64,000 nt of DNA, taken from a virus. A model generated the notes under the pieces. That model made no database searches and was not told the origin of the DNA. It saw only the letters and a list, made by a program, of their open reading frames with translations. The stretch spans positions 11,954 through 75,953 of the IMG/VR virus record IMGVR_UViG_3300044993_000765; one strand, 5' to 3'. Positions within the stretch are counted from its first letter, which is position 1; every line of letters begins with the position of its first letter. Positions 19,192 through 50,758 of this stretch are shown piece after piece. The position numbers and the translations under genes were made by a program.

Positions 19192-19649
19192 AGCAATTGC
19201 GCCCCGCTTTCCCCACCATCGATTCTCTCGTTGCGCTTGGCCACTGCACTACGTGCCGCCTGTCCCGTGCGGTTGAACACATCCTCGAATCCGCCTTCGA
19301 TGCCACTGGTCGCGATGCCAAGGGGATTGCCCATGACATCGGTCTCGATTGTGGGCACTGTGAGGATGGTCCCGACCTTTCGGATCGGATCCCCAGCCGG
19401 CTCGAAATCGACACCGTTGGTCGTGAAGCCCGGAGTCAGACCGGGAATCAACTCGAACTCGTCGTCGCGCGGGTAAAGGTGTCCGTGTTCGTCCTGGAAT
19501 ACCATCATCGGCTCCCCCGTGTGGTGGAGATTGCGATGCATGTCCAAGGACACCGGCTGTGTATCCGGAATCAGGATCTGAGGCGAACCGAAGTTCGTCA
19601 CCTGCCTATCTGCCTGCTGGGCAGGCGCCGATGGGGATTGATCGTTCAT
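19188..19649 (-). CDS. Phage hypothetical protein
   Basis: AAGGA SD; coupled to the next gene. Confidence 0.6.
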   Translation of the reverse strand: MNDQSPSAPAQQADRQVTNFGSPQILIPDTQPVSLDMHRNLHHTGEPMMVFQDEHGHLYPRDDEFELIPGLTPGFTTNGVDFEPAGDPIRKVGTILTVPTIETDVMGNPLGIATSGIEGGFEDVFNRTGQAARSAVAKRNERIDGGESGAQLL

Positions 19650-19728
19650 GAAAGATTCCTTTGGACAAAAGAAAAGCCCCGCTTACGCAGGGCCGGGTAG
19701 AATTTCGTTCACTTGGAACGCAGCATTG

Positions 19729-22227
19729 TCATCCGCCGCCATCGCCGCCGCTATCGGCAGGCGGAGCCATCGTTCGCGAACCGATCCGCATCACCGGCCC
19801 ACTCGGGCTGTCCAGACCTGCCGCCTCGGTTCGCGCCTGCTCCTGAGTCAGCGCCTCTTGGCGAGTCATCTGCACGTTTTGCGCAATCGCCGATGACTGC
19901 TCGATCGACTGCGAGAGCGCATGTTCCAGATTGATCGGAATTCTGCGGTGCGCCGGACTGTCGAGATCTCCCTGTACGATGAACAGGGTCTCAGGGCGTC
20001 CCGTCTGCGGATCGATGCGGCTGCTCGGCACGACATGATCGATGCCGGAGAAGTTCCATCCCTTGGCGGACAACGCCTCGGCGACAACGGAGGCGCCCAA
20101 TGTCGCGCGCTCGTGCTGCGTCAGCCCCATACCGGGCGCGGTCTCGATCCTCGACAATGCAGTCTGTGCCTGGAGGTAAAGCAGGTGCGCGGCGTGCCCG
20201 GGTTCGTTCAGCAGCGAAGGTTGCGGCGGGGTCCGGGTGTCTTCGCCGTGCAGCGCCTCCGACTCAGTCTCCGTCGGCTTTTTCCCGGGCGACGCCAGCG
20301 AAGGGTATTTCGCCATCAGCGCGGACTCGTATGCCTCCACCTTCGCTTCCACACTCGGTACCACCGTATCGTTGAGGTGCCGCTGGAACGACTCCATGCC
20401 GCTTCCGATGCCTTCCCTTACCACATAAGCCGTTTTGGGGGCCGCACCAGGTAGGGCATGCGCTGCGACGGCATTCTCCTTGAGCGCATAGCCCGCAACC
20501 GCAGCCGCGCCTGCTACCGGCGCATACTCGCTTACCTGCGCCAGCCTGTCACTGGCGATCTCCAGTACTTCACTCAGCGACTTGCCCGCGTAGATCGTGG
20601 CATCACCCTGCAGTCGTGCACCCTTCACCGCCACCGTGTCCAGCACATCGGCCACGGCGTCCGCGTTCTGCCGTATCGCTGCGGCGTCCTGGTTGGCGTC
20701 GCGCAGTGCCTGACCGGCTTCGGCCCGATTGCGCTGTCGCGCCTCGGTGCCGTCACGCTGCAGATCGTCCGCACGGCGGTCCGCCCAACGCTGTAGGCCG
20801 TCCGGCAGAAGGTCGATATCGCCGATGTTGCGCAGGACGCCGGCCCCGGCTGCCGCACTGCGCGCCCTCACTTCGCCCTGAAGCAGATCGATAGACGCCT
20901 CGATCGTGCCGGCGATTTCGCGGACATCCGACGAAGCCTCGCCGCTGGTGCGCACACCGGCCGCGGTCGCGCGCCCCAGGGCACGGCCTGCCTGCGCCTG
21001 AAGCTCACCCGCGAGGTTCGCGGCTGCGCGCACGCCATCGCTCTGCGCATTCAACGACGATGCATACAGCTTGCCGCCGACTTCGGCCCACTCACCGACT
21101 TCATTGCCCACACGCGCCGCCGCTGCCTCACGATGCGCGAGGTCCAGCAACGGACCAGCGAAGCTGGACACACCGGAGAAACTCGGCACGTCCGGACGCG
21201 GCACCAGCGCGCTATTGGGGTCGTCGGGGTCGCTGCGCTGCATCGGTCGCATCGGGACCACGCGCCCCGACGCCAGCGGCATGTCGCGCAGCAAGGTTTC
21301 GGTGTCGCCAGTCGCCAACTGGTCCACGAACGCACCGAACGAGACGCGCGCATGCGGCGGCATCATGTGTTCGACCCGCGCCTTCAGCTCGTCGCGCACC
21401 TCGTCGGGCACGTTCTGCAGGATGGTCGCACTGTGCCGCATCACCTCGGCCAGTTGCCGGTTGTGGAACGCATCCAGGCGATCGACGTTGTAGACCACGC
21501 CATCGCTGAGCACCTCGCCCTGGACTTGGTAGGCAAGAATGTGCGCATTCGGATCGTAGAGTCGCGCACCTGGATTGCGGTCGACAAAATCGCGGGCGGT
21601 ATCGGGATGCAGCGGCGCCGCATTGAACGTCACGGCACGTTCGCCGCTGACCGATACGGCCGCCGAGGCCAGGCCCCCTCCGAGAGAGTGGCCGGTGTAA
21701 TCGACACGCACTCCAAACTGCCTGAAATCTCTCGCCAGCTCCATTGCGCGATCGTAGTAGTCGGTACGCGAGCCTATCGTCTGCGGCCCGTTGATGCCTG
21801 CGAAGTCTTCGAGCGTCGTGTCGCGCGTGGTGCCGTCCGCGAGTTCGATCGGCCCGGAAGACCCTTTGAAGGCCACCGTGGGCTTGAAGCCCGGCCCAAG
21901 AATCTCCAGATCGGGCAGGTAGATCTCGGCGCGGAAACCTGATCGCTCTGGCTTCAGATACTTCGTGATCGCATCATTGTCAAGATGCGAAAAAGCAGTA
22001 ACTTGCTGGCGCAAAAGATCAAGATTTTCACTGCCGCGTATCCATCCCGCCGGTGGCTGACCTTCGCCTGCTGCAGAAAGGTAGACGTCCTGGCCCAGGT
22101 AGGACATTTCAGCGTCGTAGTGCAACGATTGTAGCTTCTGCAGATCGGCCAGTGCCTCTGGTGTCCCAATGGATTGCAGCCGTTCACGGAGGACGCGACG
22201 GTGTTCCAGCTCTGTGGGGGACGTCAT
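19729..22227 (-). CDS. X-T4SS effector: lipase/phospholipase (alpha/beta hydrolase) with C-terminal XVIPCD
   Basis: YTGHSLGGGLA nucleophile elbow; IDHVVPS...FIVQGDLDSPAHRR...QSIEQSS is XVIPCD-like. Confidence 0.82.
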   Translation of the reverse strand: MTSPTELEHRRVLRERLQSIGTPEALADLQKLQSLHYDAEMSYLGQDVYLSAAGEGQPPAGWIRGSENLDLLRQQVTAFSHLDNDAITKYLKPERSGFRAEIYLPDLEILGPGFKPTVAFKGSSGPIELADGTTRDTTLEDFAGINGPQTIGSRTDYYDRAMELARDFRQFGVRVDYTGHSLGGGLASAAVSVSGERAVTFNAAPLHPDTARDFVDRNPGARLYDPNAHILAYQVQGEVLSDGVVYNVDRLDAFHNRQLAEVMRHSATILQNVPDEVRDELKARVEHMMPPHARVSFGAFVDQLATGDTETLLRDMPLASGRVVPMRPMQRSDPDDPNSALVPRPDVPSFSGVSSFAGPLLDLAHREAAAARVGNEVGEWAEVGGKLYASSLNAQSDGVRAAANLAGELQAQAGRALGRATAAGVRTSGEASSDVREIAGTIEASIDLLQGEVRARSAAAGAGVLRNIGDIDLLPDGLQRWADRRADDLQRDGTEARQRNRAEAGQALRDANQDAAAIRQNADAVADVLDTVAVKGARLQGDATIYAGKSLSEVLEIASDRLAQVSEYAPVAGAAAVAGYALKENAVAAHALPGAAPKTAYVVREGIGSGMESFQRHLNDTVVPSVEAKVEAYESALMAKYPSLASPGKKPTETESEALHGEDTRTPPQPSLLNEPGHAAHLLYLQAQTALSRIETAPGMGLTQHERATLGASVVAEALSAKGWNFSGIDHVVPSSRIDPQTGRPETLFIVQGDLDSPAHRRIPINLEHALSQSIEQSSAIAQNVQMTRQEALTQEQARTEAAGLDSPSGPVMRIGSRTMAPPADSGGDGGG

Positions 22228-23147
22228 GGGTTCCCCTCATCGAGTTCTGGCAACAGGACTTTCGACTCGTCTGTTTCAAATCCGAATGCCTCCCGATCCC
22301 GCCGGTAGTGGTCCGGCAACGGGGGGCGCTTGAATCCCTTGTTCAGCACCCACTGCTGGCACTTGATCTGCCATTCCCGTCCTTCTCCCGGATCCATGGG
22401 TTTCCAGAAAATGGACTCCATTATCAGCGATCGGTGGCTCTGGCCCGGCGGCAAAAAATTTCTAGGATTTGGGTCTGCTCCCTTTTGCAGCAGCCAGTAA
22501 GCTTTCTTGAACGCACCACGGCTAGAATAATTATGAAGAATTGTCCCGATGCCAGTGATGGCGTTGACATCAGCCCCACGCTCAACCAGTAGCTGCACGT
22601 TCTGCCACTGGTCCTGCCAGATAAAGGCTTGAAAGAGCAGCGTCTCATTGTTGACATTCCGTGTATTCGGATCGCCGCCGTGATCGAGCAGATGACGCAG
22701 ATAGATGGGGTCTTCCTGCTTCGCTGCCCATACCAGAGCATTGTCATTGTTCCGCGCGGGACGATCTGGCGACACGGGATAAGGCAACGCCGCATTCGGA
22801 TCTGCGTCGTTCTCCAGCATCGCCTTCAACCCCTCCGGATTTTTGGTGAAGATCGGCCACGCCAGCAGCGGCATGCCTTCGGGCGAGAAATGCTTGTCCG
22901 GATCGACGCCCTCCTCCTTCATCAGCCGACGCACCTCGGCGGCATCGCCAAATTCCGCGGCGACCGCCAATGCCTGGGCGCCCTTGTCCGGGTACCACGT
23001 CTCCAGGCTGCGGGTGTGCGCCGATTTGGCGGCAGGAGGCAGCGGCTCCAGCAGGCAGCCGCTGATTGTCATTTGCACCAGCAATAGGACAACAACCAGC
23101 AGAGCCTTCACATGCAGTTCCTTTTTGAGTAGAGGAGGCGGTTTCAT
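22224..23147 (-). CDS. Ankyrin-repeat lipoprotein, probable cognate immunity protein
   Basis: Signal peptide with lipobox-like ISGC; LLENDADPN/GGDPN/GADVNA repeats; ATGA overlap with the effector. Confidence 0.8.
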   Translation of the reverse strand: MKPPPLLKKELHVKALLVVVLLLVQMTISGCLLEPLPPAAKSAHTRSLETWYPDKGAQALAVAAEFGDAAEVRRLMKEEGVDPDKHFSPEGMPLLAWPIFTKNPEGLKAMLENDADPNAALPYPVSPDRPARNNDNALVWAAKQEDPIYLRHLLDHGGDPNTRNVNNETLLFQAFIWQDQWQNVQLLVERGADVNAITGIGTILHNYSSRGAFKKAYWLLQKGADPNPRNFLPPGQSHRSLIMESIFWKPMDPGEGREWQIKCQQWVLNKGFKRPPLPDHYRRDREAFGFETDESKVLLPELDEGNP

Positions 23148-23257
23148 TGACGGTATCGCCCTTTTCTCATCGATACGATCCGTTTCGAGATACCCATTCC
23201 CTGTTTCAAGGCGGCATTCGGATACACATTACTGCCATAGACGGTCCTCGATTTCGT

Positions 23258-23860
23258 TCACGGGCTCCCGAAAACAACATTCGGTATATCTTCGCGCATC
23301 GCCCCTTGCCTGCCGCGCTGAATGTACATGATTTCCTGCCAGATTTCCTCGCCCATCGATCTGCTGAATGCGACACCGAGACGATAGCTCTCCTGCATTT
23401 GCTTCGGTGAATTTTCGACCAGCTTGCGGCCCAACGGAGACGAAAAGAATGCAATCAGTCCTCTGATGTCATCGCGGCTATAGTGCCGGTCGTAAAGCGC
23501 GGCCATGATCTCCATCAACTCCGGAAGTCTTCTCTCCATGACACGCTCAGAAACGGCCCTGTAATCCCGTGAGAGGGGTTTTGCAGACGCGCCGGCGTCG
23601 TCGCCCCCTTCTCCAGCGCGCATGGATTTCTCCGTTTCCTCGAACATCATTTGATACATCCGCCTGAAGCTCTCCTCCTCATTCGTAAGTTTCATCAGCC
23701 TCACAATATCCGCATGTTTTTCGCCGGCAGCGTCCTGCGCAGACGCGACCGGCATCACGCATATGAGTAGCAGCGCAGTCAGCCATCCCGCCAGCATGTA
23801 TTTGATTCTCCTGTGACTTGTAACGTCGCGGCCTTGCGTCCCGCCCATGTCTTCCCCCAT
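23258..23860 (-). CDS. DUF2059-like exported protein (start uncertain)
   Basis: LYDRHYSRDDIRGLIAFFSSPLGRKLV motif; signal peptide. Confidence 0.75.
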   Translation of the reverse strand: MGEDMGGTQGRDVTSHRRIKYMLAGWLTALLLICVMPVASAQDAAGEKHADIVRLMKLTNEEESFRRMYQMMFEETEKSMRAGEGGDDAGASAKPLSRDYRAVSERVMERRLPELMEIMAALYDRHYSRDDIRGLIAFFSSPLGRKLVENSPKQMQESYRLGVAFSRSMGEEIWQEIMYIQRGRQGAMREDIPNVVFGSP

Positions 23861-24052
23861 TAAGGTTTCTGCTTGGTTTGCAATACCAAATGATTCATGA
23901 TCGCGTGCTTGATCGGTACCGCTTGTTCAGCACAGCACCCACAGCGCCGCCGCCAGAGCGCATTTGCCCGACCATTCCAGTATCTGCGGCCATTTTTTTC
24001 GCCACGACCACCACCACTTATCCGGTCGCATACAGATTGTCTGTCGCCGCAT

Positions 24053-24499
24053 TCATGCCGCTGCGCGGGGAGAGGCCGACAGGTTCACATGCCGCATCCA
24101 TTCGCCCATCGTGATCTGCGGGGGGCATTTCCCTGCCGCGATCTGCTTCTTCAGACGGATTTCTTCGCGATCTACCGCTATCGATCGAGGCGCGACTACC
24201 CCGATGCGCACCTGCCTGTTGCGCAGTGCCGAAAAACCTAGATATGTCGGCTTGAACGAGACGCTGACATCTGCGTCTCCCACCTCAAAGCGATCCTGGC
24301 TTAGCAGGGTGAGGAGATAGAAAGAGGTCCCGTCGCCCAGAGCCGCGCCTCGCATTTTCACGCCGTTGACGATCAGCGGTACCGAAGGGGGCGCGAGCAC
24401 ACCCAGCATGACGTGGTAGCACAGCTTGTCGTAGACGGTGAGACAGATACTGTCTCCGATGTATATCGTCTCGCCCACCCTGCGCGTGAGGATTAGCAT
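24053..24499 (-). CDS. Single-chain tandem CsrA/RsmA-like protein
   Basis: Begins MLILTRRVGETIYIGD; second repeat ends QVRIGVVAPRSIAVDREEI. Confidence 0.8.
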   Translation of the reverse strand: MLILTRRVGETIYIGDSICLTVYDKLCYHVMLGVLAPPSVPLIVNGVKMRGAALGDGTSFYLLTLLSQDRFEVGDADVSVSFKPTYLGFSALRNRQVRIGVVAPRSIAVDREEIRLKKQIAAGKCPPQITMGEWMRHVNLSASPRAAA

Positions 24500-24903
24500 C
24501 GCGTGCTCTCCTGCCGTGGCATTGCCCACTGTTGTGCCATATCTGACGGATCGGCATCGCCCGTGTGCTCGTAACTGACACGAATTGCTGCGGGCGTCGC
24601 AATCCCGACATGAACACAGTCCACGCAGTCTGCAGCCAGCGATACGACATCGCCAGGCAGCCAGATCGCGATGAGGATGTCGTCGATACGAAAACGGCGG
24701 ACACGTCGAAGCGAGAAGTAGTAAGCCTGTCTGTCATTCGACATCGATAGAGGACTGATCGTCGCACCATCGAAAAGCAGTTCCGACCCAACGGGCGCGA
24801 ATACGCTGACCGCGATCCGATCCTTTTCCCGTCCGCTGACCGCGACCTGCACGTCATTGCCGACATGGACCACCCCTCCCAATTTGCAGGTCATCACCAA
24901 CAT
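24493..24903 (-). CDS. Degenerate tandem CsrA-like protein
   Basis: MLVMTCKLGGVVHVGNDVQV...; homolog of 46315..46761. Confidence 0.65.
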   Translation of the reverse strand: MLVMTCKLGGVVHVGNDVQVAVSGREKDRIAVSVFAPVGSELLFDGATISPLSMSNDRQAYYFSLRRVRRFRIDDILIAIWLPGDVVSLAADCVDCVHVGIATPAAIRVSYEHTGDADPSDMAQQWAMPRQESTRC

Positions 24904-25070
24904 GCGTCCAAGCTCCCTGTTCAGTGAGCGCGACATGGCAGGGCCACCCCGCCCGTCATAACTCAGGGACCAAAATACACCATTGGTTTATTATAATGCA
25001 ACCGTGGTCTTTACATCTCCCGGCTCACGTCGTCTAATCCCTGCCGCCCCTCCTCTCCGACCCGGCTCCC

Positions 25071-25721
25071 ATGGATTCCTTCGCCCAGGCTCTTTCCGAC
25101 GCCATCGACGACTCCGGCATGCGTGGTGACTTCATCGCCAAGCAGGTCGGCACGACTGCGAACCGCCTTTCGCAGTGGAAGAACGGTCGTCGACCAGTGC
25201 CGGCGCACTACGCGCCCACGCTCGCCGCCGTGCTCGAAGTGCCGCCGGAAAGGATCAGCAGCGCATATGCAAAAGTGATCGAAGCTGGGCTTTCGATTGA
25301 TTCTGCAAATCGATCAACACCGATACCGAGCGGCAACGTCCGTATCCCGAGGCTCGCCGATTTCGGTCGACCCGAAGCTATGGACGACTGCTATCTCCTT
25401 GAAGTCATTGCGCGTCGGAAGCTGGGGACCACACCTGTCGATGACTGCCGCTGGGCTCTGCAGCCCAATGCGGCCATGTCGCCGCTGATCGAGCGGGACT
25501 GCGTGCTGCTCATCGATACGCGCGTCACCCGCCATGCCGACATCATGGACGGGGCGGTGTATGCATTCACCCTCTGGGGACGATCTGATGTCCGCCGGAT
25601 CTTCGTCAGGCGAGATCAGTTGCTGCTGGCTGCCCATAGCTCTGAAGTCGAGCGCATCGAAGTCCATGGCGATGATTTGGCTGATCTCCATCTGCATGGC
25701 ATGGTTGTGGGCTGGCTTTGA
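25071..25721 (+). CDS. XRE HTH regulator with S24/LexA-like C-terminal domain lacking the catalytic dyad
   Basis: IAKQVGTTANRLSQWKNGRRP HTH; NAAMSPLI...VLLID...DVRRI. Confidence 0.8.
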   Translation: MDSFAQALSDAIDDSGMRGDFIAKQVGTTANRLSQWKNGRRPVPAHYAPTLAAVLEVPPERISSAYAKVIEAGLSIDSANRSTPIPSGNVRIPRLADFGRPEAMDDCYLLEVIARRKLGTTPVDDCRWALQPNAAMSPLIERDCVLLIDTRVTRHADIMDGAVYAFTLWGRSDVRRIFVRRDQLLLAAHSSEVERIEVHGDDLADLHLHGMVVGWL

Positions 25722-25824
25722 AAGCCCGCAAGCTTGCGACTTCCGGCGCAGTTTGCTTTACGATCCGTAGCAGTCCACAAATTCGGGACCGGCAAGCGGC
25801 GCCAGGACGCAGGGGAACTGAGGC

Positions 25825-27381
25825 ATGGAAGGCAACAGATGGATCATGTTCGGCAGAGGCCTGTCAGCGTCGGCGGGCTACTGCGCGGCCTATTGGCTTC
25901 TGTGGCAAGCATCCTTTGACCAGTGGTTCCTCCCGGCAGGTTTGCGGGCGACGGTCTTTCTGCTCGCCCCCTTGCGATATTGGCCCTATCTGCTGGTCGG
26001 CGACGCTGCCGCTCTACTCATCATCCGAGCCCCCATGGCCAGTGATTATGGAGCGACTTGGGCTTACCTCAGCCCGTTCTTGCTCGCGCCCTGGGTCACT
26101 TCCGCCGTATTGTCGCTAAGAAGGCTTCTGCCTACCCTAGAACGGCAGGTATCGTGGCTCCCTGCCGCGGGCATTGCCTTGGCCATCTGGGGGACGCTCG
26201 GGAACGTCGCCATCAACGCCGTCCTGTCCGGCCCGTCTTCCTTCGATACTTTCGACAAGGCTTCGAACTTTGCGGTCGGGAATTACCTCGGGATTCTGCT
26301 CCTCGCGCTCCCGGGTTACTTCTTCACGATGGGCAAGCACCGGAAGTTGAAAGGCAGCATCTTCATTCGCGACACCGGAATCGGAGTTCTGCTGGTCGTC
26401 GGAATCTACGCAGCGATCTCTCTTTACGACTTCAGCATGACATCAAGGCAAGTCCTGATGATGTTGATGTTTCTGCCGGCGGCAGGCTTGACGCTTCTGC
26501 ACGGATGGAGAGGGGCGGCAGCCGGCGTGTTCATGGTCAACCTCGCGATCGCGCAGACCATGACCTATACAGGAGAAGAAGCCACCCGAGACCTTGATGT
26601 CTTTGTCGTCCAGTGCGCATTGACCATCGCCGCGATCGTCCTTCTGGCGATTGGAACGAAGATTTCTTTACTCTACAACCGCGCGAGGCAGCTTGGCATT
26701 TCCGAAAAGCGCGCCCTGGAAATGACTCGCTCCAGCCTTTTCATCGGCGAAAACAACCTGCGTGAACAGGTGCTCTTCATGGCGCAGATGCATGTCTACA
26801 TGCACGAGCAACGGACACAACTGGTCGAACTATACAGGGCGCAGGGCAAATTCACGGAAGCGATGCTACTGAACAGCGCAACCGTAGAACACATGCAATC
26901 TTTCGAGAGTCGCGCCGCTGCGATTTACCCATTGAAGATCGAAGAAGTCGGACTCTATCGCGTCATTTTTCCGGATGCCTTCACCGATTTCTGGGCGGGA
27001 GATGCAGAGGTCATCTACTCTAACGCAGTCGGCATGCCGCGCACTCTTTCTGTCGACCTGCAACTGACCGCTTATCGCTGTATCTGCAATGCCTTTACGG
27101 TGCTCGCCCAAAGCGCACCGAAGCAATACGTCGTCAAACTGCGCACATGGAAACGGCGCGGACATCGCGGTATCGTGTTCAAGGTCATCGCAAACTACGC
27201 AGGCTCGCCTCAGATCACACGATCCGGTGCGATGGCCGAGATCGATCTCGAACGGAGAGTCAAGGCGTATGGAGGCGCCATGGCGCGCAAGCAGCTTCAC
27301 TGCGTCCATGTGATGCTATGGGAGCCGACGACTGACGAATCGGCTCCCACAGCAGACGAGGTCCTGCCGTCAGAAAGATGA
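25825..27381 (+). CDS. MASE1-domain membrane sensor with degenerate UhpB-like kinase region
   Basis: WFLPAGLR...YWPYLL and LHGWRGA MASE1 motifs; multiple TM helices. Confidence 0.8.
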   Translation: MEGNRWIMFGRGLSASAGYCAAYWLLWQASFDQWFLPAGLRATVFLLAPLRYWPYLLVGDAAALLIIRAPMASDYGATWAYLSPFLLAPWVTSAVLSLRRLLPTLERQVSWLPAAGIALAIWGTLGNVAINAVLSGPSSFDTFDKASNFAVGNYLGILLLALPGYFFTMGKHRKLKGSIFIRDTGIGVLLVVGIYAAISLYDFSMTSRQVLMMLMFLPAAGLTLLHGWRGAAAGVFMVNLAIAQTMTYTGEEATRDLDVFVVQCALTIAAIVLLAIGTKISLLYNRARQLGISEKRALEMTRSSLFIGENNLREQVLFMAQMHVYMHEQRTQLVELYRAQGKFTEAMLLNSATVEHMQSFESRAAAIYPLKIEEVGLYRVIFPDAFTDFWAGDAEVIYSNAVGMPRTLSVDLQLTAYRCICNAFTVLAQSAPKQYVVKLRTWKRRGHRGIVFKVIANYAGSPQITRSGAMAEIDLERRVKAYGGAMARKQLHCVHVMLWEPTTDESAPTADEVLPSER

Positions 27382-27819
27382 CGGTGTGCGCACCTGCCAG
27401 CGTTGGGTCGCGCCATCCTGGTACAGGATCACTTCCACGTCTTCCGAGCGGAACAGGACCTTGGGCACGCCAGCCGGCTGTGTTTCCGCCTGGATGGTCA
27501 CGCGATCGACATCGCTCCCGATTGGCATGGTCCAGAACGTGTCGCCGATACGGCCCACGGCCGCTCGGACATTGCCGTATTGGTCATTGATCTGGGTATA
27601 GCGAATGCCGTCCCTCTGGAATTCGTAGACCTGCCACGCGGCATCCGCTGCGAGATCCGGCGCAACCGGGAACTCCTGGCCGAGACCGGATTGGGCAGCC
27701 GGAGCCCCGGCCCCATCGCTGGGACACCCGCACTTTGCATGGACCACCGGGGTCGCGAGAACAGCCATCAGGCCGATGAGCGTGAGACCGCGCGTTCTTG
27801 AAGCAACCTTGAAAATCAT
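27370..27819 (-). CDS. Small secreted protein, KCGCPxDG family
   Basis: Sec signal ending VHA; clear homolog of 49239..49691. Confidence 0.8.
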   Translation of the reverse strand: MIFKVASRTRGLTLIGLMAVLATPVVHAKCGCPSDGAGAPAAQSGLGQEFPVAPDLAADAAWQVYEFQRDGIRYTQINDQYGNVRAAVGRIGDTFWTMPIGSDVDRVTIQAETQPAGVPKVLFRSEDVEVILYQDGATQRWQVRTPSSF

Positions 27820-27958
27820 GACTAACTCCTTGTATTCCGTCGAAAAACAGGGATGGCGTTACCGGCAGGAGATGCCGGCGACACCGATTTGGGATACCCG
27901 CTCCATTGGTTTGCGGGCCACTTGACGGTAACACCGGAGTCAGCACATACGCTGCCGG

Positions 27959-28594
27959 TCAATTGCCCGTGTCCGGGCGCAGAACGACCGCCGAAACGGT
28001 CAAGCGCAACCGGGTGAGGATCTCGGCCGGAAGCGTGTTGACGATCAGGACCAATGCATCGGCTCGCGAAAGCCAGTTCCCGACCGCGACCCAGCCCGAT
28101 GCGACCACACCCCCGTTGATCTCCGTGGAGGGGATGCCCTCCCGGACCGACCCGAGAGTAAAGGCCACCCCCTCCTCCGGGACTTCGACCTTCCAGTAGA
28201 CCCCGAGCAGAAAGCAGTCCGGCGGGATCACGACCGGATAGATCGTGTCGTTTTCGGCCAGCGGATGGCAGGCCAGGTACTGCTGAAGACCGACCTGAAG
28301 CCGGCCGGTGTTTTCGGTCGGAAGCAGGCAGTCCTGACGCAGGGTGTACCCGGTATCGATGAGCGCCGGATAGAAGTCCAGTGTTCGCGAAAGGCCATAG
28401 GCCACATGGATCTTGTGGCCCGCCGCTTCGGTCCGGACCGCATCGAGCAGCTCGGTGGTCATGGGGGCATTGGGATCGATCGACATTGGACAGTCGTCCG
28501 CGCAAGCATCGCCGGCCCAGCCGGCCACGTTCTGCGGGAACAACACGTCCTGCGGGGTTTGCCCGCCCCCGTGATACAGATGATGATGTGCCAT
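27959..28594 (-). CDS. Putative capsid-associated/decoration protein
   Basis: Immediately downstream of the major capsid gene; GAGGA SD. Confidence 0.55.
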   Translation of the reverse strand: MAHHHLYHGGGQTPQDVLFPQNVAGWAGDACADDCPMSIDPNAPMTTELLDAVRTEAAGHKIHVAYGLSRTLDFYPALIDTGYTLRQDCLLPTENTGRLQVGLQQYLACHPLAENDTIYPVVIPPDCFLLGVYWKVEVPEEGVAFTLGSVREGIPSTEINGGVVASGWVAVGNWLSRADALVLIVNTLPAEILTRLRLTVSAVVLRPDTGN

Positions 28595-39257: not shown

Positions 39258-39321
39258 TCAACCACTATCTGCAAAAAAGTGATTGATTTTTTTGGTTTTT
39301 CTTATGAATCAATGGGATGCA

Positions 39322-39341
39322 TGCCCCCATTGTTGCCCCCA
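39322..39341. promoter_or_regulatory. Integrase arm-type sites (tgccccca x2, 12-bp period)
   Basis: The same pair with the same spacing occurs at 55289..55308. Confidence 0.75.
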
Positions 39342-39477
39342 GAGCCGGCCTTCTGCACCGGAATGTGGTGGGACTGCGCGGGACAAACGACGATCACGAC
39401 ACCCTGGCGGTTCATTACACACACGCCTTGCACGACAGCGCACGCGACTCAGCAACGCAACCCGCCAGCGGGTGCGC

Positions 39478-40053
39478 CTACTTCGGTTCGGCCGCGTCTC
39501 CCTGCTCGTAAAGCGACACCAAACCCTGCTCGCCGACGGCGTGCGTGCTGCACGGGAAATAGACCAGTTCGTCGATCACGTTCAACCACGCGCCGTTGAA
39601 TCGCTCGATCAGGTTGCGCTGCCAAGCATGCGGCATCGCCCAGATGTGTTTGCAGCGGGCCACGGCAACGTCATAGCTCGCATGCGGCTCGAAGTACACC
39701 AGGTACAGCGGCGTCACCTGTTCTGGTCCATAGCGGCGCTTCTGCATGCGATTGATCCAGTTCATCTCTTCATAGGCCCACACCAGACTGCTCGACACCG
39801 CCTTGCTTGCGACGTTGACGTAGTACGGCCGGGCGCGCGCAAATGCCAACATGTACACGACGGCCTCCGGTTCCGGCAGAGGTCGGCCGCGCAGGCTGTC
39901 CAGCGTCCAGGTGGTCGCCTCCGGCGCTGGGACTTCGGATCGCGCGGTCTCCGCCTCCAGCGTCGCCGGGGTGAGGCTTGCGAGATCAGCCGCCACCGCC
40001 GCCTCCACCACCTCCGCCGCCGCCACCCCCATCGCCGCCGCCATCGCCATCAC
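39478..40053 (-). CDS. Degenerate GIY-YIG (YhbQ-like) protein; start uncertain
   Basis: VYMLA...YYV and LVYFE.H....A.AR.K.I....AW...LIE..N..W. Confidence 0.5.
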   Translation of the reverse strand: MMAMAAAMGVAAAEVVEAAVAADLASLTPATLEAETARSEVPAPEATTWTLDSLRGRPLPEPEAVVYMLAFARARPYYVNVASKAVSSSLVWAYEEMNWINRMQKRRYGPEQVTPLYLVYFEPHASYDVAVARCKHIWAMPHAWQRNLIERFNGAWLNVIDELVYFPCSTHAVGEQGLVSLYEQGDAAEPK

Positions 40054-43000
40054 CCTGTGGTCCCGATGATGGTGTCAGCGTGCGCGGGCCGATCCGCATC
40101 ACCGGACCCTCGGTTTCCTGTCGCTCCTTTTTCGCCAGTTCTTCGGCCTGTATCTGCGCCAACACCTGTTCTCGCATCACCGTTGCAGCCTGCGCCATCG
40201 CTGAGGACTGCTCCAGCGAAGTGTGCAGCGCCTGCTGCGTATTGATCCCCGCACGGTGGCAGTAGTCGGTCGTCGGATCGCCCTGCACCGGAATCAGCGT
40301 GGCAGGCAAGCCGGGACCGGGCGCGCTTTGGGTGCTTACGCACAGACTGTCGATACGGGTGGCGAACTTGTCTTCGGCCAGGAACTGCGCCACCACGCCG
40401 GCCGCTAAGCGGCTTTTCTCCTCCTGCGTCAGCAGGCCCGCCGGCACCACGTCGCCGCGTTCGATCAGGCCCAACGCCTGCGTGTACATCGCATGCGCCG
40501 GGTGGCCGGGGTGCGTCATCAGCGTGGGCGCGGGCGACGCTTGTTCCGATGCTTGGGTGGGTTGCCGATCTTCTTCGCGTTCGTCGCGGGTCGCGGCGCG
40601 ATGGGCGAGCGCCGGATCGAGTGCCGTCGCGGTTTGCGGTGCGGTTTGCGCCTCGGCGCGCGCGGTATATTCGGGTTCGCGCTCGGGTGTGTCGTCGGTG
40701 CTGCGTGCCGTCGATGCGGACAGGCCCACGGTACGCGCTGCGGCGGCGGGCTCCGGTGTGTCCTGTGCTGGCGTCGAACGGTTTGGGCCGCTTGGTTCGC
40801 CACGTTCCCGCTCGCGTTGCGCCGCAAGCGCACGATCCACCGCGTCGCGCGTGTCCTGATCGGCGATGCCAGTCGCGGGGATGCCGTGCATCGTCTGGAA
40901 CTGGCGCACGGCGTGTTCGGTTTCCGGGCCGTACTGGCCGGTTTGTGGGATCTGCGTGCCGTCCGGTCCACGATAGCCTTGCCGGTCGAGGCGGTATTGC
41001 AACAGTTCGACATCATCGCTGCGGTCGCCCAGGCGTAGAACATCGGGATCGGATGTCGTGGGCGCGGGCGTCGTCGTTTCGATCTTCGCGGCGGTGCGCT
41101 CAGACTCTGGCAACGATTCGCGTTCTGGCGCGGCGGTCACGGTGGACGGTGGCGAGGGTTCGCGCGGTGTTTCGACTGCCGGCGACGCGGCGTGTCGATC
41201 GCTCGTCGCCGTTCGCACATCCGGTTCGGTGGTCGTCGTGTTCGGCTGCTGTGCGGATTCGCGTTCGCTCACAGGCGCGGTGGTGGGCGGGCTGCTGTCG
41301 TTCGCCTGCACACCGTTGGGCGGCGTTTGATCGCGCGCCGCGCGCTCAGCGTCGCGATGCTGTTCGATGTCCGCGCGTTCGCGCTCAATACGCGCGGCGT
41401 CATCGTCGCGTGCGTCGCGCGCCATCGTTGCGACGGCTGTCGCCGCCAGTGGAACATTCTGCGCCGTGGGCGTGTCCTGCACACGTTCGCGCTGCGGTGT
41501 GTTCTCCGGCGTTTCCTCGGTGGCGCGTGCTGCGTCGCCTGCCGGCGTCATCACGCGCGCCGATGCGCCCACGGCTGCCGCATCGACAGCTTGCTGCGCG
41601 TCTTCTTTCGACAACCCCTGTCGATTCGCCTCGCGCTGCGCCTGTTCGCGTGCGTCGCGTTCTTCGGGCGTCGCCTGCGTGATCGTGCGTTCCGGCACCG
41701 GCTGCGCATACGCGACGGCGTACTGCGTCGGCTGATCGGCGATGCCGGTCGCAGGCAAGTCGTGGGCCTGCTGAAATTTCGCGACCGCGTACACGGTGTC
41801 TTGGTCGTAGTGTCCATTTTGCGGAAGCGGCTGGCCGTCGATCCCACGATAGCCCTGTTGATCGAGACGGTATTGCAGCAACGCGACCTGATCGTTGCGG
41901 TCGCCGGGGTACGCGGTATCGGGATCGCGCGGGCCTGCCATCATCGCTTGGATCGCGGCGGTTTGCGCGGGGTTCTGTGTCGTGGGCACATCCTGCGCGC
42001 GCTCGCGTTGTGGTGCGTTCTCCAACGCCTGTTCGGGCGTGCGGATTGCATCCTCTGCTGGCGTGGTTCCGCGCGCCGGTGCGCCGATGGTGGCCGCATG
42101 GACGGCTTGCTGCGTGTCGTCGTTCGATAGTCCTTGCCGGTTCGCTTCGCGTTGCGCCTGCTCCGCAGCGTCGCGTTGCTCCGGCGTGGCGAACGCGATG
42201 GTCTGCTCGGGTGCTGCATGCGCGGGCGATGGCGCTTGCTGTTCATGCGATTTCAGTTCGCGCAACTCGGCCGCGATGTCGTTCGGCGTCGTGGTCGCCG
42301 CTGTCTCCACGTTCTTGCCGTCAGCGCCGCCAAAACGCGTATGACGAATCTCAATCTCGGCGATGGACTTCCCCGCCGTGTTCGGCTCAAGTTCAAGCGC
42401 ATTGACGCCCGCTATCAGCCCATGCTCGGCGCGCGTGCGTTGCACGGCAGCGTAGGCCGCCTCGAATTCCTCTGGTCGAACGTCGGGATTGCGGCCCGCA
42501 TCGACGTACAGGCGGCGCAATGCGGCGCGGTCGGCCTGTTCTGGCGTGGGCGGCGTCCAGTCGGGAATGCGCGCGAGTTCCTTCTCGTATCCCGGCATCG
42601 CCGAAAGCAAGCGTTCGCGCGTCAAGTCCAGTTCCAGCGCGCGCTGAGGGGGTGCCGGTTCGCCGCCGCGCATCCACGTCCCTTGCGCATCCCGTTCGTA
42701 AACACGTTCGTCGGAGGCTTGCAGTCGGTCGGTCGTCATGGCGCTGGTCACGGCCGCCGGCACCTCGCCGGCTTCGCCGTAGCCGTAGGCTTTGTGTCCC
42801 AACTGGTAGCGCATCGCGATGGCCGCCGGCCCCGCTTGAAGGTTCTCGTCTATCGTCTGGCGTGCTTGGGCATTCAACTGCGCGGTGCGCTCTGGACTGG
42901 CGTACTCCGGCTCCGCGTTCCACTCGGGGGCGCCTTCGCGATCCACGGTATCGGCCACTTGGCGCGACCAGCGTTCGCTTTCCACGTTGTAGGTCCAACG

Positions 43001-44308
43001 TCCTGTCTGCACATGCGCGGGGTCGCTCTCCGACACCGGCTGCACGAACGGGTTGCGCGGCGTCGGCACCTTGCCCAGCGCCTGTTCGGCCGCCTCCACC
43101 CCGGCCTGATAACTCAACTGCTGCGCTTTCTCGGGGGGCGCGCGATACCGCGCCGGTTGAAAGTCGCTGATCCCATCGTCCACTCGGTCGGCGCGCAAAT
43201 CTTCGCGAATCCAGTCCTTGCCGTTGTAGCCCCACGTCACGCCCGGTTCGTCGCGATCTTTCTGCGAATAAATCTTCTCGTTTTGCCAATGCGTGACGGC
43301 GCGATCAGCGGCTTCGGCCATGAGAAACGCATCGGCCGCCACCAACACCAGCGGACCCGTGCCCGTGGCGCCCACGGCGGCCGCCGTGAGCGTGCCGCCG
43401 CCCCAGCCCGCGACATTCCGTGCGCCGAAACGTGCCCACTGCTCGTTCGCGGCGGTCGCGTTGTCCTGCGCCCACAGTTCGCTGGTGCGTACCGTCGTTT
43501 GGTACGCATCGAGTCCCGTTGCCGCAATACCGCCCATGCGCAGGGCTTGGTTGGCGGAAAGATCGCCGACCAGAAATTCAGGCGAGATAAAACCGCGCTG
43601 GCCGCGTGGCACGCGGAACGCGCGCTCTGCCGCTTCGGCCCCTTGCTCGGTCAGCGTCAAGCGACCATTCTCCTGCGCGCTGTCCACCGCCTCCGACAAG
43701 CTCTGCAAGCCTCTCGCGGCATTGCCCTTGATGGTTTTCTTTCCGGGCTGGTCGATGGTCTCCAGGCTGGCGGTCAGATGCGATTCGGATTTCAGCACCG
43801 CCGGCCAACGCGCTTCGGGGCCGGTGAGTTTGCCGACCGCCTCGATCTCAAGCGCATGCGTGCGCTGGTATTCGGGGAGATTGCGAAAGAACGCCGCGTT
43901 CCTCGCGTTCGCGGCTTCGGGTGTCATGCCTTCCGGCGTGTTGGTCAGCAGATCGCCGTTGACCATTGCGAATTTGAGGGTGTCGCAGAGGTGGTTTACT
44001 CTTGCCGCTACCCGCTCGGCGGCGGCTCGATTTCCTGCGAGTGTGGCTTGACCATCCGGCGTTTCGGCCAGCTTTTCAAGTGCGTCTGTCAGTTTGTCAG
44101 AATACTCGCCCAGCGGTCCACCATTGTGAGGCGTGACGTCGAGTTTCAATGCTAATTGCCTGTCGGCAGGCAAGTTCAGCAGATTGCGGTCGCCATGTAA
44201 GTCAAACAGACCTCCTCGCGTGAGGTCTTGCAATAGCTTGCTTCTTTTATACGCATCTTGCTCAATGACGTGATGCCCTTGAAATACAGGCTGGTCGTGC
44301 TTAGCCAT
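39986..44308 (-). CDS. X-T4SS effector: N-terminal AHH (HNH-fold) nuclease, two peptidoglycan-binding domains, C-terminal XVIPCD-like domain
   Basis: FQGHHVI...NLLNLP...PHNGG; two V.LLQYRL..QGY...AV..FQ..H..P.TG.AD repeats; HPAHAMY...PVQGDP...TSLEQSS. Confidence 0.82.
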   Translation of the reverse strand: MAKHDQPVFQGHHVIEQDAYKRSKLLQDLTRGGLFDLHGDRNLLNLPADRQLALKLDVTPHNGGPLGEYSDKLTDALEKLAETPDGQATLAGNRAAAERVAARVNHLCDTLKFAMVNGDLLTNTPEGMTPEAANARNAAFFRNLPEYQRTHALEIEAVGKLTGPEARWPAVLKSESHLTASLETIDQPGKKTIKGNAARGLQSLSEAVDSAQENGRLTLTEQGAEAAERAFRVPRGQRGFISPEFLVGDLSANQALRMGGIAATGLDAYQTTVRTSELWAQDNATAANEQWARFGARNVAGWGGGTLTAAAVGATGTGPLVLVAADAFLMAEAADRAVTHWQNEKIYSQKDRDEPGVTWGYNGKDWIREDLRADRVDDGISDFQPARYRAPPEKAQQLSYQAGVEAAEQALGKVPTPRNPFVQPVSESDPAHVQTGRWTYNVESERWSRQVADTVDREGAPEWNAEPEYASPERTAQLNAQARQTIDENLQAGPAAIAMRYQLGHKAYGYGEAGEVPAAVTSAMTTDRLQASDERVYERDAQGTWMRGGEPAPPQRALELDLTRERLLSAMPGYEKELARIPDWTPPTPEQADRAALRRLYVDAGRNPDVRPEEFEAAYAAVQRTRAEHGLIAGVNALELEPNTAGKSIAEIEIRHTRFGGADGKNVETAATTTPNDIAAELRELKSHEQQAPSPAHAAPEQTIAFATPEQRDAAEQAQREANRQGLSNDDTQQAVHAATIGAPARGTTPAEDAIRTPEQALENAPQRERAQDVPTTQNPAQTAAIQAMMAGPRDPDTAYPGDRNDQVALLQYRLDQQGYRGIDGQPLPQNGHYDQDTVYAVAKFQQAHDLPATGIADQPTQYAVAYAQPVPERTITQATPEERDAREQAQREANRQGLSKEDAQQAVDAAAVGASARVMTPAGDAARATEETPENTPQRERVQDTPTAQNVPLAATAVATMARDARDDDAARIERERADIEQHRDAERAARDQTPPNGVQANDSSPPTTAPVSERESAQQPNTTTTEPDVRTATSDRHAASPAVETPREPSPPSTVTAAPERESLPESERTAAKIETTTPAPTTSDPDVLRLGDRSDDVELLQYRLDRQGYRGPDGTQIPQTGQYGPETEHAVRQFQTMHGIPATGIADQDTRDAVDRALAAQRERERGEPSGPNRSTPAQDTPEPAAAARTVGLSASTARSTDDTPEREPEYTARAEAQTAPQTATALDPALAHRAATRDEREEDRQPTQASEQASPAPTLMTHPGHPAHAMYTQALGLIERGDVVPAGLLTQEEKSRLAAGVVAQFLAEDKFATRIDSLCVSTQSAPGPGLPATLIPVQGDPTTDYCHRAGINTQQALHTSLEQSSAMAQAATVMREQVLAQIQAEELAKKERQETEGPVMRIGPRTLTPSSGPQGDGDGGGDGGGGGGGGGGGGGG
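41441..42190 (-). repeat. Internal ~78-aa duplication in the effector (about 41441..41674 and 41957..42190)
   Basis: ATPE.RDA.EQAQREANRQGLS..D.QQAV...PQRER.QD.PT.QN occurs twice. Confidence 0.85.
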
Positions 44309-44350
44309 GATGAAATTCTCCGATGAATAAGCAAAGGGCTATCGCAGCAA

Positions 44351-45004
44351 TCAGAAATCTGCTGCGTCTCTCCAGTGCAAGCCATCCGAGCTGGGCTTGA
44401 CCCCGATTCCTGCTTTACGGATTGCGTCGTACATGATCCGATCACAGATAACGGTGAGCGGTTTCTCTGCCATCCGAAACACATGGGCCGAACCAACGAC
44501 ATCTTTCTTAAATGCAAGCTTCGCGCCCCTCGTAAAATCTATAATTTCTACGTCTTTCCCTGTGCGAAAATCGTGTTCGATATCAACAAAAAACTCAGAG
44601 TTTTCCCTGTCCAGAGCAGATAGTTTTCGCACCACATCGCACAGGTAGAACTGTGGCCCTTGCGATCCATCAGGCAACACGTAGTCGCATGCGGCGAACT
44701 CAAACGCCTCCGGGTCAACGGATTCAAAGACGTTCTTCAATCGCTCTGACACGAGCCAGTAACCACCAAAATCCCCATCCAGATCATTCGGCGGCCTGTT
44801 CTTTCCTGGCCCAGTGCCATGAACTAGACGTGGCGTTTCCGGCAGGGGCGGAATGCCGCCTTCAGGTGGCCGAATGATGCGAGAGGGCGGCGTCAACAAT
44901 GCTTCTTCGTTTGCGAGAACGACATTGGATAGCGGCGAACTGCTGCGCGAATCTGGACGCAGCAAGTAGAACTGTCCTTTCTCGGACTTTTGCTTGGTGG
45001 TCAT
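44351..45004 (-). CDS. DUF1629/Imm11-family immunity protein
   Basis: WLVSERLKNVFESVDPEAFEF...YLCDVVRKLSALD; directly upstream of the AHH toxin. Confidence 0.78.
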   Translation of the reverse strand: MTTKQKSEKGQFYLLRPDSRSSSPLSNVVLANEEALLTPPSRIIRPPEGGIPPLPETPRLVHGTGPGKNRPPNDLDGDFGGYWLVSERLKNVFESVDPEAFEFAACDYVLPDGSQGPQFYLCDVVRKLSALDRENSEFFVDIEHDFRTGKDVEIIDFTRGAKLAFKKDVVGSAHVFRMAEKPLTVICDRIMYDAIRKAGIGVKPSSDGLHWRDAADF

Positions 45005-45519
45005 CGTGTCCTCACTGCTCATCAATGTGTCGGTGGTCATGCAGGTCAATCGTATCGATATTTACGTGAAGGCGTCAGCATCAGCAACATGCACGCGACG
45101 CTGGCACGGCTTCGCCATTGCGCATCCACGGCCCTTGCGTATCACGTTCGTAGTCGCGGTGGTCGGATGCGCGCAGTCGGTTGGTCGTGATGGCGGATCG
45201 CCTTTACGGCGCACGGCAACTGCTGGCGGATCGTGCAGCCGGTCGTTTCGATTCGGTCGCAGCCGCTGGTGCGGGGCGATGTCGTTGTTCTCCGTCATGG
45301 AGCATTCCTGTCCTGAGTCGTCCAAATTATGACAGCGGGTCCAGCCGGTGGCACACGGCCGGATTGGCGGGCGCGGTCGTCACAGCAGGTACAGCAACAG
45401 GGCGACCAGCCATTTGCAGACCCCGATCACAAGATCGTAGCGCCGCATTCTGCGTTGGTCTGCGCAATGCGCACCGTGCCTGCGCCGGGGGCGGCCAGGT
45501 GCCGACGTTGCGCGCGCAA

Positions 45520-45942: not shown

Positions 45943-45943
45943 G

Positions 45944-46761: not shown

Positions 46762-46894
46762 GGGACACCTCCTGTGTGGCCGGACGAGGAGGCCGGCGGC
46801 AGGCGCATCGTTACCGGCGTTAACGCTGGTGTCAATAGGATGAATTTCTGATGTAGGCTTACACCATCCCCGTTCAGCCCGGAACCTGCCCCCC

Positions 46895-47551: not shown

Positions 47552-47654
47552 CGGGCGGGATCGGGCCTAGAATGGCATGACGCCAGCGCGGCGATCGGCA
47601 CACCCTGTCGGATCAGACAGGGGCGGCGACAACACAGGGAACAGGGAGCGGAAT

Positions 47655-49202: not shown

Positions 49203-49238
49203 GCCCGGACGCCCTCGCGGGCTTCCGGGCCGCCGTCC

Positions 49239-50717: not shown

Positions 50718-50758
50718 AGGCCGCTCGCCTGTCGTCGGAACTGTTCGCCGCGACCGCC

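Follow-up and report, generated by a model that had tools for sequence, protein, structure and literature searches.

The virus record IMGVR_UViG_3300044993_000765 is a 76-kb provirus, and the stretch of 64,000 nucleotides analysed here, referred to as the window, corresponds to its positions 11,954 to 75,953. The window carries two copies, designated A and B, of a gene cassette whose core is made of four protein families: a signal-peptide protein with a mature K-C-G-C-P start (SEC), a membrane protein with a MASE1 domain, a repressor of the XRE type and proteins resembling the RNA-binding regulator CsrA (Csr-like). The open reading frame (ORF) listing and Pfam scans confirmed the genes that an initial annotation of this DNA had named in both copies, with their positions and strands, and the same gene order and orientation in A and B. 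The features of copy A are the following (positions counted from the first letter of the window).

19547..28184, minus strand: insertion formed by cassette A and its cargo, 8.6 kb within the phage structural gene block
27370..27819, minus strand: SEC-A, predicted secreted or periplasmic beta-rich protein with a signal peptide, K-C-G-C-P, a variable linker and a conserved domain
25825..27381, plus strand: MASE1-A, MASE1 domain at residues 10-278 (Pfam MASE1 E 4.5e-23), then a DHp-like hairpin and a CA-like domain
25071..25721, plus strand: XRE-A, CI-like repressor with an N-terminal helix-turn-helix (HTH) and a C-terminal S24-like domain without the catalytic dyad
24904..25070, no strand: divergent control region A, from XRE to the first Csr-like gene, AT-rich, promoter-like at about 24970-25001
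24493..24903, minus strand: Csr-like type 1, 136 aa, tandem CsrA-like fold, sub-threshold Pfam CsrA match
24053..24499, minus strand: Csr-like type 2, 148 aa, expected single-chain pseudo-dimer, Pfam CsrA match in two stretches
23927..24052, minus strand: small ORF A, 41 aa, TGAATG coupling to the Csr-like stop, hydrophobic C-terminal tail with Cys as last residue
23258..23860, minus strand: DUF2059 protein (cargo), Pfam E 1.5e-13
22224..23147, minus strand: ankyrin-repeat protein (cargo), Pfam Ank_2 E 2.4e-17
19729..22227, minus strand: effector A of the X-T4SS (type IV secretion system) type (cargo), N-terminal lipase-like toxin domain and C-terminal XVIPCD (X-Tfes_XVIPCD E 5.7e-15)
19675..19694, minus strand: intrinsic-terminator-like hairpin A, which would close the transcription unit of the Csr-like and toxin genes

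In the minus-strand unit transcription proceeds from Csr-like type 1 to Csr-like type 2, the DUF2059 protein, the ankyrin-repeat protein and finally the XVIPCD effector. The plus strand carries XRE followed by MASE1, divergent from this unit, and the gene of SEC-A is convergent with that of MASE1-A, with a 12-nt overlap between the two. The corresponding features of copy B are listed below.

about 39258..55425, minus strand: element B, 16.2-kb integrase/primase-helicase element between g55416 and terL, carrying cassette B
49239..49691, minus strand: SEC-B, 64% identity to SEC-A
47577..49202, plus strand: MASE1-B, read as a pseudokinase, Pfam MASE1 E 1.5e-16
46895..47551, plus strand: XRE-B, CI-like repressor, Ser position retained and Lys position occupied by Arg
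46756..46894, no strand: divergent control region B, TTGACA at 46835-46830 (minus strand), then a GTTAACG..GGTAAC inverted repeat
45520..46755, minus strand: Csr-like genes B, at 46315-46755 (type 1), 45944-46315 (divergent) and 45520-45942 (type 2)
45380..45448, minus strand: small ORF B, 22 aa, hydrophobic tail, after the last Csr-like gene, without the terminal Cys
44351..45049, minus strand: Imm11 immunity protein (cargo), Pfam Imm11 E 6.8e-62
39986..44308, minus strand: effector B (cargo), 1440 aa, AHH/PG_binding/XVIPCD arrangement, with PG_binding_1, XVIPCD (E 1.2e-10) and a weak AHH match

The initial annotation spoke of a tandem of CsrA genes; Csr-like genes do stand in tandem, but each of them is itself an internal tandem repeat, and copy B has three of them instead of two. 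Identity between the copies amounts to 43% for XRE, 37% for MASE1 (over 518 aa) and 37-42% for the Csr-like proteins, with SEC as the most conserved part of the cassette (64% versus 37-43% for the others), and the similarity of the two effectors is confined to the XVIPCD region. Judged by these sequences, copies A and B are clearly homologous, yet old.

The phage genes identified in the window encode an SU10-type portal, a head-tail adaptor, the major head protein, TerL, TerS and a muramidase. As had been proposed, cassette A lies among the capsid genes, between the major-head region and the head-tail adaptor. Comparison with 14 related proviral loci, gathered using the major head protein, revealed the extent of the foreign DNA. 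Twelve of the 14, with head proteins 61-79% identical, have the head gene followed by a short ORF (nextA), g19188 and the adaptor gene, with about 0.3 kb at the place where the window has 8.6 kb. DNA homology with the related phages ends at 28185 and restarts at 19546, and because these 12 relatives run contiguous there, cassette A and its toxin genes can be taken as an insertion spanning 19547-28184. No repeats were found at the ends of this insertion. The phage ORF located 5' of SEC runs into the inserted DNA (27822-28184) and ends 3 nt before the SEC start, so that SEC-A may be transcribed together with the late capsid genes; a similar stretch is found upstream of SEC in locus L005.

Copy B had been attributed to a satellite. 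It does sit on a separate element, which is better described as a 16.2-kb integrase/primase element. In the closest relative of the phage (L104, about 93-97% DNA identity across most shared stretches and 88% at terL), which also carries cassette A, the genes terS, g55416 and terL are contiguous, and 39258-55425 is consequently regarded as a second insertion. The element has short direct repeats (GTGATTGAT) at both ends, an integrase gene at 54010-55419 and AAA_25 and CHC2 primase genes at 50881-53455. Its set of integrase, small ORF, CHC2 primase and AAA_25 helicase splits terS from terL, and the element could be a phage-targeting satellite or island.

Conservation of the core and variation of the cargo

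The relatives of SEC form at least 76 clusters at 90% identity. A scan of one genome per prokaryotic species gave 136 SEC-encoding places, of which the best 80 were taken, corresponding to 79 distinct loci. Their neighbourhoods were compared by tblastn and by clustering of all flanking ORFs, and 64 loci with enough flanking DNA were considered informative. The loci belong nearly all to Lysobacteraceae, with a few in Xanthomonas and Dyella, and at least 19 assemblies contribute two to five loci each. A MASE1 gene convergent to SEC is present in 78 of the 79 loci. XRE was found in 54 of the 64 informative loci, and XRE together with one to three Csr-like genes in the same order in 50 of them, meaning that 50 of the 54 XRE-bearing loci carry Csr-like genes. 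The four core families are the only ones widely shared around the cassette, the next commonest occurring in 11 of the 79 loci. The synteny shared by copies A and B and these genome loci is far beyond chance. The initial annotation had named a neighbourhood survey of the KCGCP protein as the way to check the cassette, and in this survey the linkage held; its view of a mobile unit with conserved synteny is equally borne out by the comparison with the 12 related phages. In Xanthomonas and Dyella the linkage is limited to SEC and MASE1.

The surroundings of the cassette are diverse. Nine out of 20 proviral contigs with SEC relatives carry the full set, and three loci (L043, L056 and L067) have phage flanks, with a tape measure gene on one side and a Toprim primase gene on the other. 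Some copies have housekeeping flanks, in that they lie between purH/purD and trpD or adjoin cysNC, ABC transporter, glutamate-synthase-like or aconitase genes. A conjugative-element context was considered for the flanks and rejected, as these consist of housekeeping, toxin or phage genes. In a quick maximum-likelihood tree of the MASE1 proteins (IQ-TREE), some clades lack toxins and keep to a single chromosomal position in several species, and others are associated with toxins. Copies A and B belong to two different clades of the latter kind and were therefore acquired separately. Taken together, these data support the cassette as a conserved unit that recurs on unrelated elements.

Toxin-type genes (XVIPCD, Rhs and SpvB/Rhs) accompany about 40% of the copies. 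They lie co-oriented and 3' of the Csr-like genes and encode Rhs proteins (11 loci), XVIPCD effectors and SpvB/TcdB/Rhs proteins. Since about 60% of the copies are toxin-free and the four-gene core is kept without a toxin, the latter is optional cargo. The DUF2059 protein is not conserved in other cassettes. Toxins and DUF2059 are thus cargo outside the core, and the initial annotation, which had made them defining parts of the system, has to be amended on this point, all the more as whole clades are stable between housekeeping genes.

In both effectors of the window the C-terminal XVIPCD expected of X-T4SS effectors is present, and the window encodes no T4SS able to deliver them. Residues 24-242 of effector A match the type VI secretion system lipase effector 7ubz (E 2.5e-20). 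The pair formed by the ankyrin-repeat and XVIPCD proteins of copy A recurs 3' of the cassette in L023 and L029, and the ankyrin-repeat protein is a probable immunity partner of the lipase effector. In L038 (14247-20424) the Csr-like genes are directly followed by virD4, coding for the T4SS coupling protein, and then by an XVIPCD protein gene, this cassette heading a T4SS-related gene set. In several Xanthomonas species (L074-L081), part of the bacteria-killing T4SS locus, namely virB6 and the gene of a lipase-type XVIPCD effector, lies about 3-6 kb upstream of SEC, and a large superfamily-1 helicase comes next. Four further loci (L062:14296-17348, L072, L008 and L071) encode a protein of 715 aa and, after it, between one and three paralogous proteins about 300 aa long, all without Pfam match, a set that looks like a toxin with its immunity array.

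Core proteins and their control region

SEC starts with a signal peptide that carries an AxA-type cleavage site. A lipoprotein nature was considered and rejected because the Lys/Gly residues preceding the Cys do not fit a lipobox and because of that cleavage site. The mature N-terminus of the family shows an invariant CxC or CC followed by Pro (C30, C32 and P33 are invariant when SEC-A is placed in the family alignment), after which comes a variable linker. The SEC-A model consists of a beta domain predicted with a pLDDT (predicted local distance difference test) above 90 over residues 45-149, and according to this model SEC is a protein of periplasmic type, folded and about 120 aa long. Neither Foldseek nor VIA-align recognised a relative of the fold (best Z 4.4, which is noise level), and profile searches with SEC and MASE1 against PDB sequences gave nothing significant.

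Both copies of the membrane protein belong to the MASE1 family (PF05231). The MASE1-A model (pLDDT 86.5) comprises the MASE1 membrane domain, a long DHp helical hairpin and an alpha/beta, CA-like domain. Its top Foldseek matches are cytoplasmic domains of DesK, a HisKA_3 kinase (E 2e-5 to 1e-3, about 225-235 columns), and the hairpin and alpha/beta fold typical of HisKA_3-type kinases are present in the model and in these matches. The catalytic features of such enzymes are missing. Over residues 296-340 no column has a His in more than 5 of 31 sequences, the 31-sequence alignment shows no conserved N-box Asn and no DxGxG, and the Pfam HATPase_c model does not match the protein. Given the lack of a conserved His, N-box Asn and DxGxG, the MASE1 protein is read from its sequence as a pseudokinase of the DesK/UhpB type. 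No receiver-domain gene was found among the conserved neighbours of the cassette. The MASE1 proteins of three Dyella loci (L073, L082 and L083) have a G2-like GxGL segment, an ATP-lid-like insertion and a His near the expected H-box, and they lack a linked XRE or Csr-like gene. By these motifs, the SEC-linked MASE1 proteins of Dyella may be active kinases and ancestors of the Lysobacter pseudokinases.

The designation XRE repressor given by the initial annotation stands as to the repressor nature, the protein being more precisely a CI-like one with an HTH and an S24-like domain. Both copies show sub-threshold Pfam matches to Peptidase_S24 and HTH families, and the PHROG matches are to a transcriptional repressor (E 4.7e-10) and a CI-like repressor (E 2e-8). 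The N-terminal HTH and C-terminal S24 fold of LexA/CI repressors are both there and the catalytic Ser-Lys dyad is not. The Lys position is occupied by Arg in 25 of 25 aligned members (R175/R176), and the Ser position by Ala in copy A and most members and by Ser in copy B, the dyad columns having been placed by the LexA motifs. With the catalytic Lys replaced by Arg, the repressor would not be expected to cleave itself. In three of the aligned members, two of which come from phage-immunity loci, a different HTH of the classical kind is combined with the same C-terminal domain beside MASE1, which suggests that it is this domain that is connected with MASE1.

The initial annotation had assumed a relay from the sensor to the repressor, and for this step there is in-silico support both in the kinase-dead scaffold and in a predicted complex. 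Modelling of MASE1 residues 285-505 with XRE residues 85-216 gave a score of 0.61, versus 0.00 for the best of three controls. Among solved complexes 58 of 80 attained this mark, and among mismatched pairs 2 of 110; these counts are only a rough guide here because author-made alignments were used. At least 91% of the contacts agree between runs, with partner pLDDT values of at least 84. The predicted interface involves, on the MASE1 side, the DHp-CA junction and the first CA strand (378-406), next to the invariant G376, and on the XRE side residues 133-135, 168-172 and 194-205, which include the family-conserved L168, R171 and P172. To our knowledge there is no solved complex of a pseudokinase with a repressor of this kind, making it unlikely that the prediction recalls a known structure. 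The model thus supports binding of the kinase-like module of MASE1 to the C-terminal domain of XRE.

The Csr-like proteins are single chains of 136-148 aa with an internal tandem repeat. Type 2 matches Pfam CsrA (PF02599) in copy A (E 3.7e-17, 62.5 bits for a cut-off of 27) and in copy B (E 3.1e-12), and PHROG assigns it to a CsrA-like regulator, again in two stretches. Residues 1-23 of the Csr-like profile match residues 1-23 of the solved E. coli CsrA, and residues 94-126 match CsrA 27-59. The Atlas model of type 2 has a template modelling score (TM) of 0.88 to a CsrA cluster. The CsrA beta1 motif MLILTRR is found in the first repeat and RIGV.AP...REEI in the second, and the inner halves of the tandem are degenerate, an arrangement other than a homodimer of 60-70-aa subunits. 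In CsrA, each RNA site is formed by beta1 of one subunit and beta5 of the other. Because of this pairing, a single-chain Csr-like protein should hold one intact site, and type 2 is expected from its motifs to be a pseudo-dimer with one intact CsrA RNA-binding site. Type 1 reaches 22 bits against Pfam CsrA, under the cut-off, and its RNA-binding residues are degenerate (TCK instead of TRR, no REE). The two types usually co-occur.

The promoter of the Csr-like genes was found by comparing 56 XRE/Csr-like intergenic regions. TTGACA occurs in 48 of the 56 cassettes, at a median distance of 53 nt from the XRE start and facing the Csr-like genes. Palindromes of clade-specific sequence (for example TAGCA-A-TGCTA, TTGACA-N4-TGTCAA or GTTAAC-type repeats) lie between the -35 and -10 elements. 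Copy A has TTGCAT in place of TTGACA, and no palindrome was found in its control region; a generic promoter scan detected nothing in copy A and a single weak site in copy B. This layout of promoter and palindromes is the geometry expected, at the sequence level, for a repressor of the divergent operon and of itself, which fits the earlier proposal that the repressor acts on the Csr-like operon. At the other end of the unit, at least 10 further loci, for the most part toxin-bearing, have a comparable small ORF with a ..LFC terminus 3' of their final Csr-like gene, and the small ORF of copy B is a weaker version of that of copy A. The hairpin at 19675-19694, located 3' of the toxin gene, is the only terminator-like site on the minus strand from the Csr-like genes to the end of insertion A.

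Several other features of the window are worth recording. A giant open frame of more than 2560 aa (2-7684, minus strand) runs off the left window end downstream of the tail-region genes and possibly encodes a virion-internal or injection protein. The patch at 11665-13600 has a low GC content (47-53% versus about 65%), carries a 410-aa ORF and two small ORFs without Pfam match, and is probably another moron or a host-range gene. Two lower-GC ORFs between portal and terL (36609-37929, plus strand) do not align to the closest relative phage and are a third variable insert. A dihydrouridine synthase gene (dus; 62567-64000, plus strand) lies at the right edge of the provirus, and in L005 (8698-9774) the closest relative of cassette A, here with an Rhs toxin, adjoins the 5' end of a 78%-identical dus. 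The position of dus at the provirus edge and beside the L005 cassette suggests dusA-targeting islands. A tRNA search of the window found none, and a megablast of 14000-38000 against annotated phages gave no match.

Interpretation and comparison with known systems

The favoured reading, held at about even odds (roughly 0.5), is that the cassette constitutes a self-contained signal-transduction and expression unit of Lysobacterales, an envelope-cued and SOS-independent switch with a post-transcriptional output, carried by prophages, by integrative elements or on the chromosome. In this model, SEC would provide the input by working with the MASE1 protein, whose DesK/UhpB-type cytoplasmic half would be unable to phosphorylate. 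The pseudokinase would then bind the S24-like C-terminal domain of the co-transcribed, non-cleavable CI-type repressor. An envelope or periplasmic cue, instead of RecA/SOS, would set the amount of free repressor, an origin of the cue that is proposed because the repressor presumably cannot cleave itself. The repressor would occupy the palindromes overlapping the TTGACA promoter of the divergent operon. The products of this operon would be a degenerate and an RNA-competent Csr-like protein, in many cases together with a small tail-anchored peptide and, for about 40% of the cassettes, with a contact-dependent toxin/immunity pair; transcription would end at a terminator. The RNA-competent, one-site Csr-like protein would probably act post-transcriptionally, for example by competing with the host CsrA. 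The gene content, its conservation, the insertion status, the loss of the kinase and dyad residues, the two-piece CsrA match and the geometry of promoter and palindromes are the observations from which we infer all binding and regulatory steps, what the cue is and in which direction control runs.

As to the target of the Csr-like proteins, the host CsrA represses the virB operon of the X-T4SS in X. citri, and no CsrA-sponge small RNAs are known in Xanthomonas (PMC7777525). These two facts make competition with the host CsrA an attractive candidate role for the Csr-like proteins. A more specific version of the model is offered tentatively. In it the kinase-dead MASE1, cued via the periplasmic protein, would directly sequester or release the non-cleavable CI, the single-site CsrA would rewire host CsrA control, phages and islands would use the circuit to time their toxins, and some phages would be induced independently of SOS.

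Several points weigh against the model of an envelope-cued switch. Adjacency of the genes alone links SEC functionally to MASE1, and the complex was modelled with a monomeric kinase fragment, though such modules normally dimerise. The record being a 76-kb provirus, a response regulator could lie unlinked in the host genome. In Dyella and Xanthomonas the linkage is limited to SEC and MASE1, and the Dyella proteins resemble intact kinases, which implies that the input pair may work without the repressor. The Csr-like type 1, apparently deprived of RNA-binding residues, has no role assigned to it. Finally, with about 60% of the cassettes toxin-free, toxin control cannot be the general function.

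A phage lysogeny switch overlaps with this model in mechanism and differs from it in the controlled target. CI, MASE1 and SEC would here form an immunity region of temperate phages in which repressor inactivation is triggered by the membrane pseudokinase and not by RecA, the Csr-like genes would stand in place of Cro or early genes, and the chromosomal and moron copies would be domesticated or decaying. The trio found in L043, L056 and L067 between tail genes and the Toprim primase gene, with a small divergent ORF at the cro position, is what such a switch would look like, four proviral loci have the same form without Csr-like genes, the repressor matches CI-like PHROGs, and the divergent overlapping promoters resemble PRM/PR. 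However, copy A is surrounded by late structural genes and copy B sits in a separate element, and consequently neither can be the immunity region of this phage. Moreover, genomes contain several copies, and whole clades occupy, in several species, positions at purH/purD-trpD, cysNC or ABC-transporter genes with no phage genes nearby. A lysogeny switch, the main competing reading, is for these reasons an unlikely account of the cassette as a whole, though in some phages the trio occupies the immunity region and may act as their induction switch.

The initial annotation favoured density or kin sensing through an extracellular signal, that is, SEC or a peptide derived from it would be released and sensed by MASE1 on neighbouring cells, tuning the toxin. 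The signal peptide of SEC, the variable stretch behind its invariant CxC and its constant pairing with the sensor would fit this view, and the diverged copies of one genome could serve as separate channels. But SEC contains a domain of about 105 residues that is modelled as folded with high confidence, and it is the best-conserved component of the cassette, contrary to what a specificity-determining pheromone would show. Genes for export, processing or uptake are not linked to the cassette, a Gram-negative signal peptide delivers no further than the periplasm, and most copies are toxin-free. The extracellular signal is accordingly dropped in favour of a periplasmic-type partner, and density or kin sensing is judged improbable. 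The least probable alternative is a lysogen protection module like λ cI-rexAB, in which MASE1 and the periplasmic protein would exclude phages or block toxins next to unrelated Csr-like genes; it could draw on the co-transcription of a membrane protein with a CI-like repressor, a weak fold resemblance of SEC to immunity proteins (for example the Xanthomonas T4SS-related 4qtq, Z 4.2, at noise level), the interbacterial toxins linked to about 40% of the copies and the X-T4SS locus in Xanthomonas, but the Csr-like genes are conserved as tightly as the rest, and the kinase-like scaffold and predicted repressor contact point to signalling.

If the envelope-cued switch is correct, a membrane sensor would control transcription without phosphotransfer, through a pseudokinase acting on a CI-type repressor, and a repressor stripped of self-cleavage would still respond to a signal. 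The fused, putatively one-site CsrA would be a test case provided by nature for the two-site bridging model of CsrA and is a candidate antagonist of the host CsrA in a lineage without known CsrA-sponge RNAs. The linkage to XVIPCD, Rhs, SpvB/Rhs, virD4 and the Xanthomonas X-T4SS suggests how mobile elements may regulate interbacterial weapons, and the cassette is a marker for many toxin loci that lack annotation in Lysobacter biocontrol strains and related bacteria.

Among known systems, the Legionella lvrR/lvrC pairing associates a phage-type repressor gene with a CsrA paralog. Like the lvrRABC/csrT class to which it belongs, the cassette joins an XRE repressor and a CsrA paralog on mobile elements beside type IV secretion genes; unlike the cassette, that class has, in a comparison by description only, no MASE1 sensor and no SEC, and its CsrA paralogs are single-domain. 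The cargo differs too, consisting in the cassette of interbacterial toxins or of none. In Legionella, csrA-like genes are located in integrative and conjugative elements (PMC4471563). The MASE1 protein shares the domain order of E. coli UhpB (MASE1, HisKA_3-type DHp and CA-like domains), and the DesK fold matches agree with such an architecture. UhpC is a separate sensory partner of UhpB, and in both systems the sensor would need a separate partner protein. The differences from UhpABC, whose UhpB is a MASE1 histidine kinase (PMC3130047), are the missing His and ATP motifs, the lack of a linked response regulator, a soluble periplasmic partner and the predicted direct binding of the repressor.

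The repressor recalls λ CI/Cro and the LexA/CI S24 proteins in its HTH and S24-like fold, divergent overlapping promoters, palindromic operators and co-transcribed downstream gene. Unlike λ CI, it has Arg instead of Lys and often Ala instead of Ser, RecA-stimulated self-cleavage not being expected, and the position of Cro is occupied by the CsrA-like proteins. Small periplasmic accessory proteins are encoded beside their membrane sensors in the pairs CpxP-CpxA, YfiR-YfiN and LuxP-LuxQ. The cassette has the same arrangement of a small periplasmic protein gene next to that of a membrane sensor, but these proteins have no sequence or fold similarity to SEC, and MASE1 is nearly devoid of a periplasmic domain. 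With CsrA/RsmA the Csr-like proteins share nearly identical beta1 and beta5 RNA-binding motifs, and they differ in having one chain, two repeats and, as expected, one intact composite site versus two in the homodimer, and in that a degenerate paralog usually accompanies the competent one. A CsrA/RsmA homologue on a mobile element that reprograms its host is known in plasmid-borne RsmQ (PMC9928087).

A search of PADLOC-DB 2.0 gave no match for SEC, MASE1 or the Csr-like proteins, a weak HTH match for XRE and an ankyrin match for the cargo, and a full-text search of the literature found no description of the cassette. None of the nearest known systems combines a MASE1 pseudokinase, a dedicated periplasmic protein, a dyad-dead CI and a fused CsrA. 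In its parts the cassette belongs to known kinds, namely mobile-element XRE/CsrA modules and accessory-protein-dependent sensors, and there is a fair chance that the relay itself represents a new mechanism.

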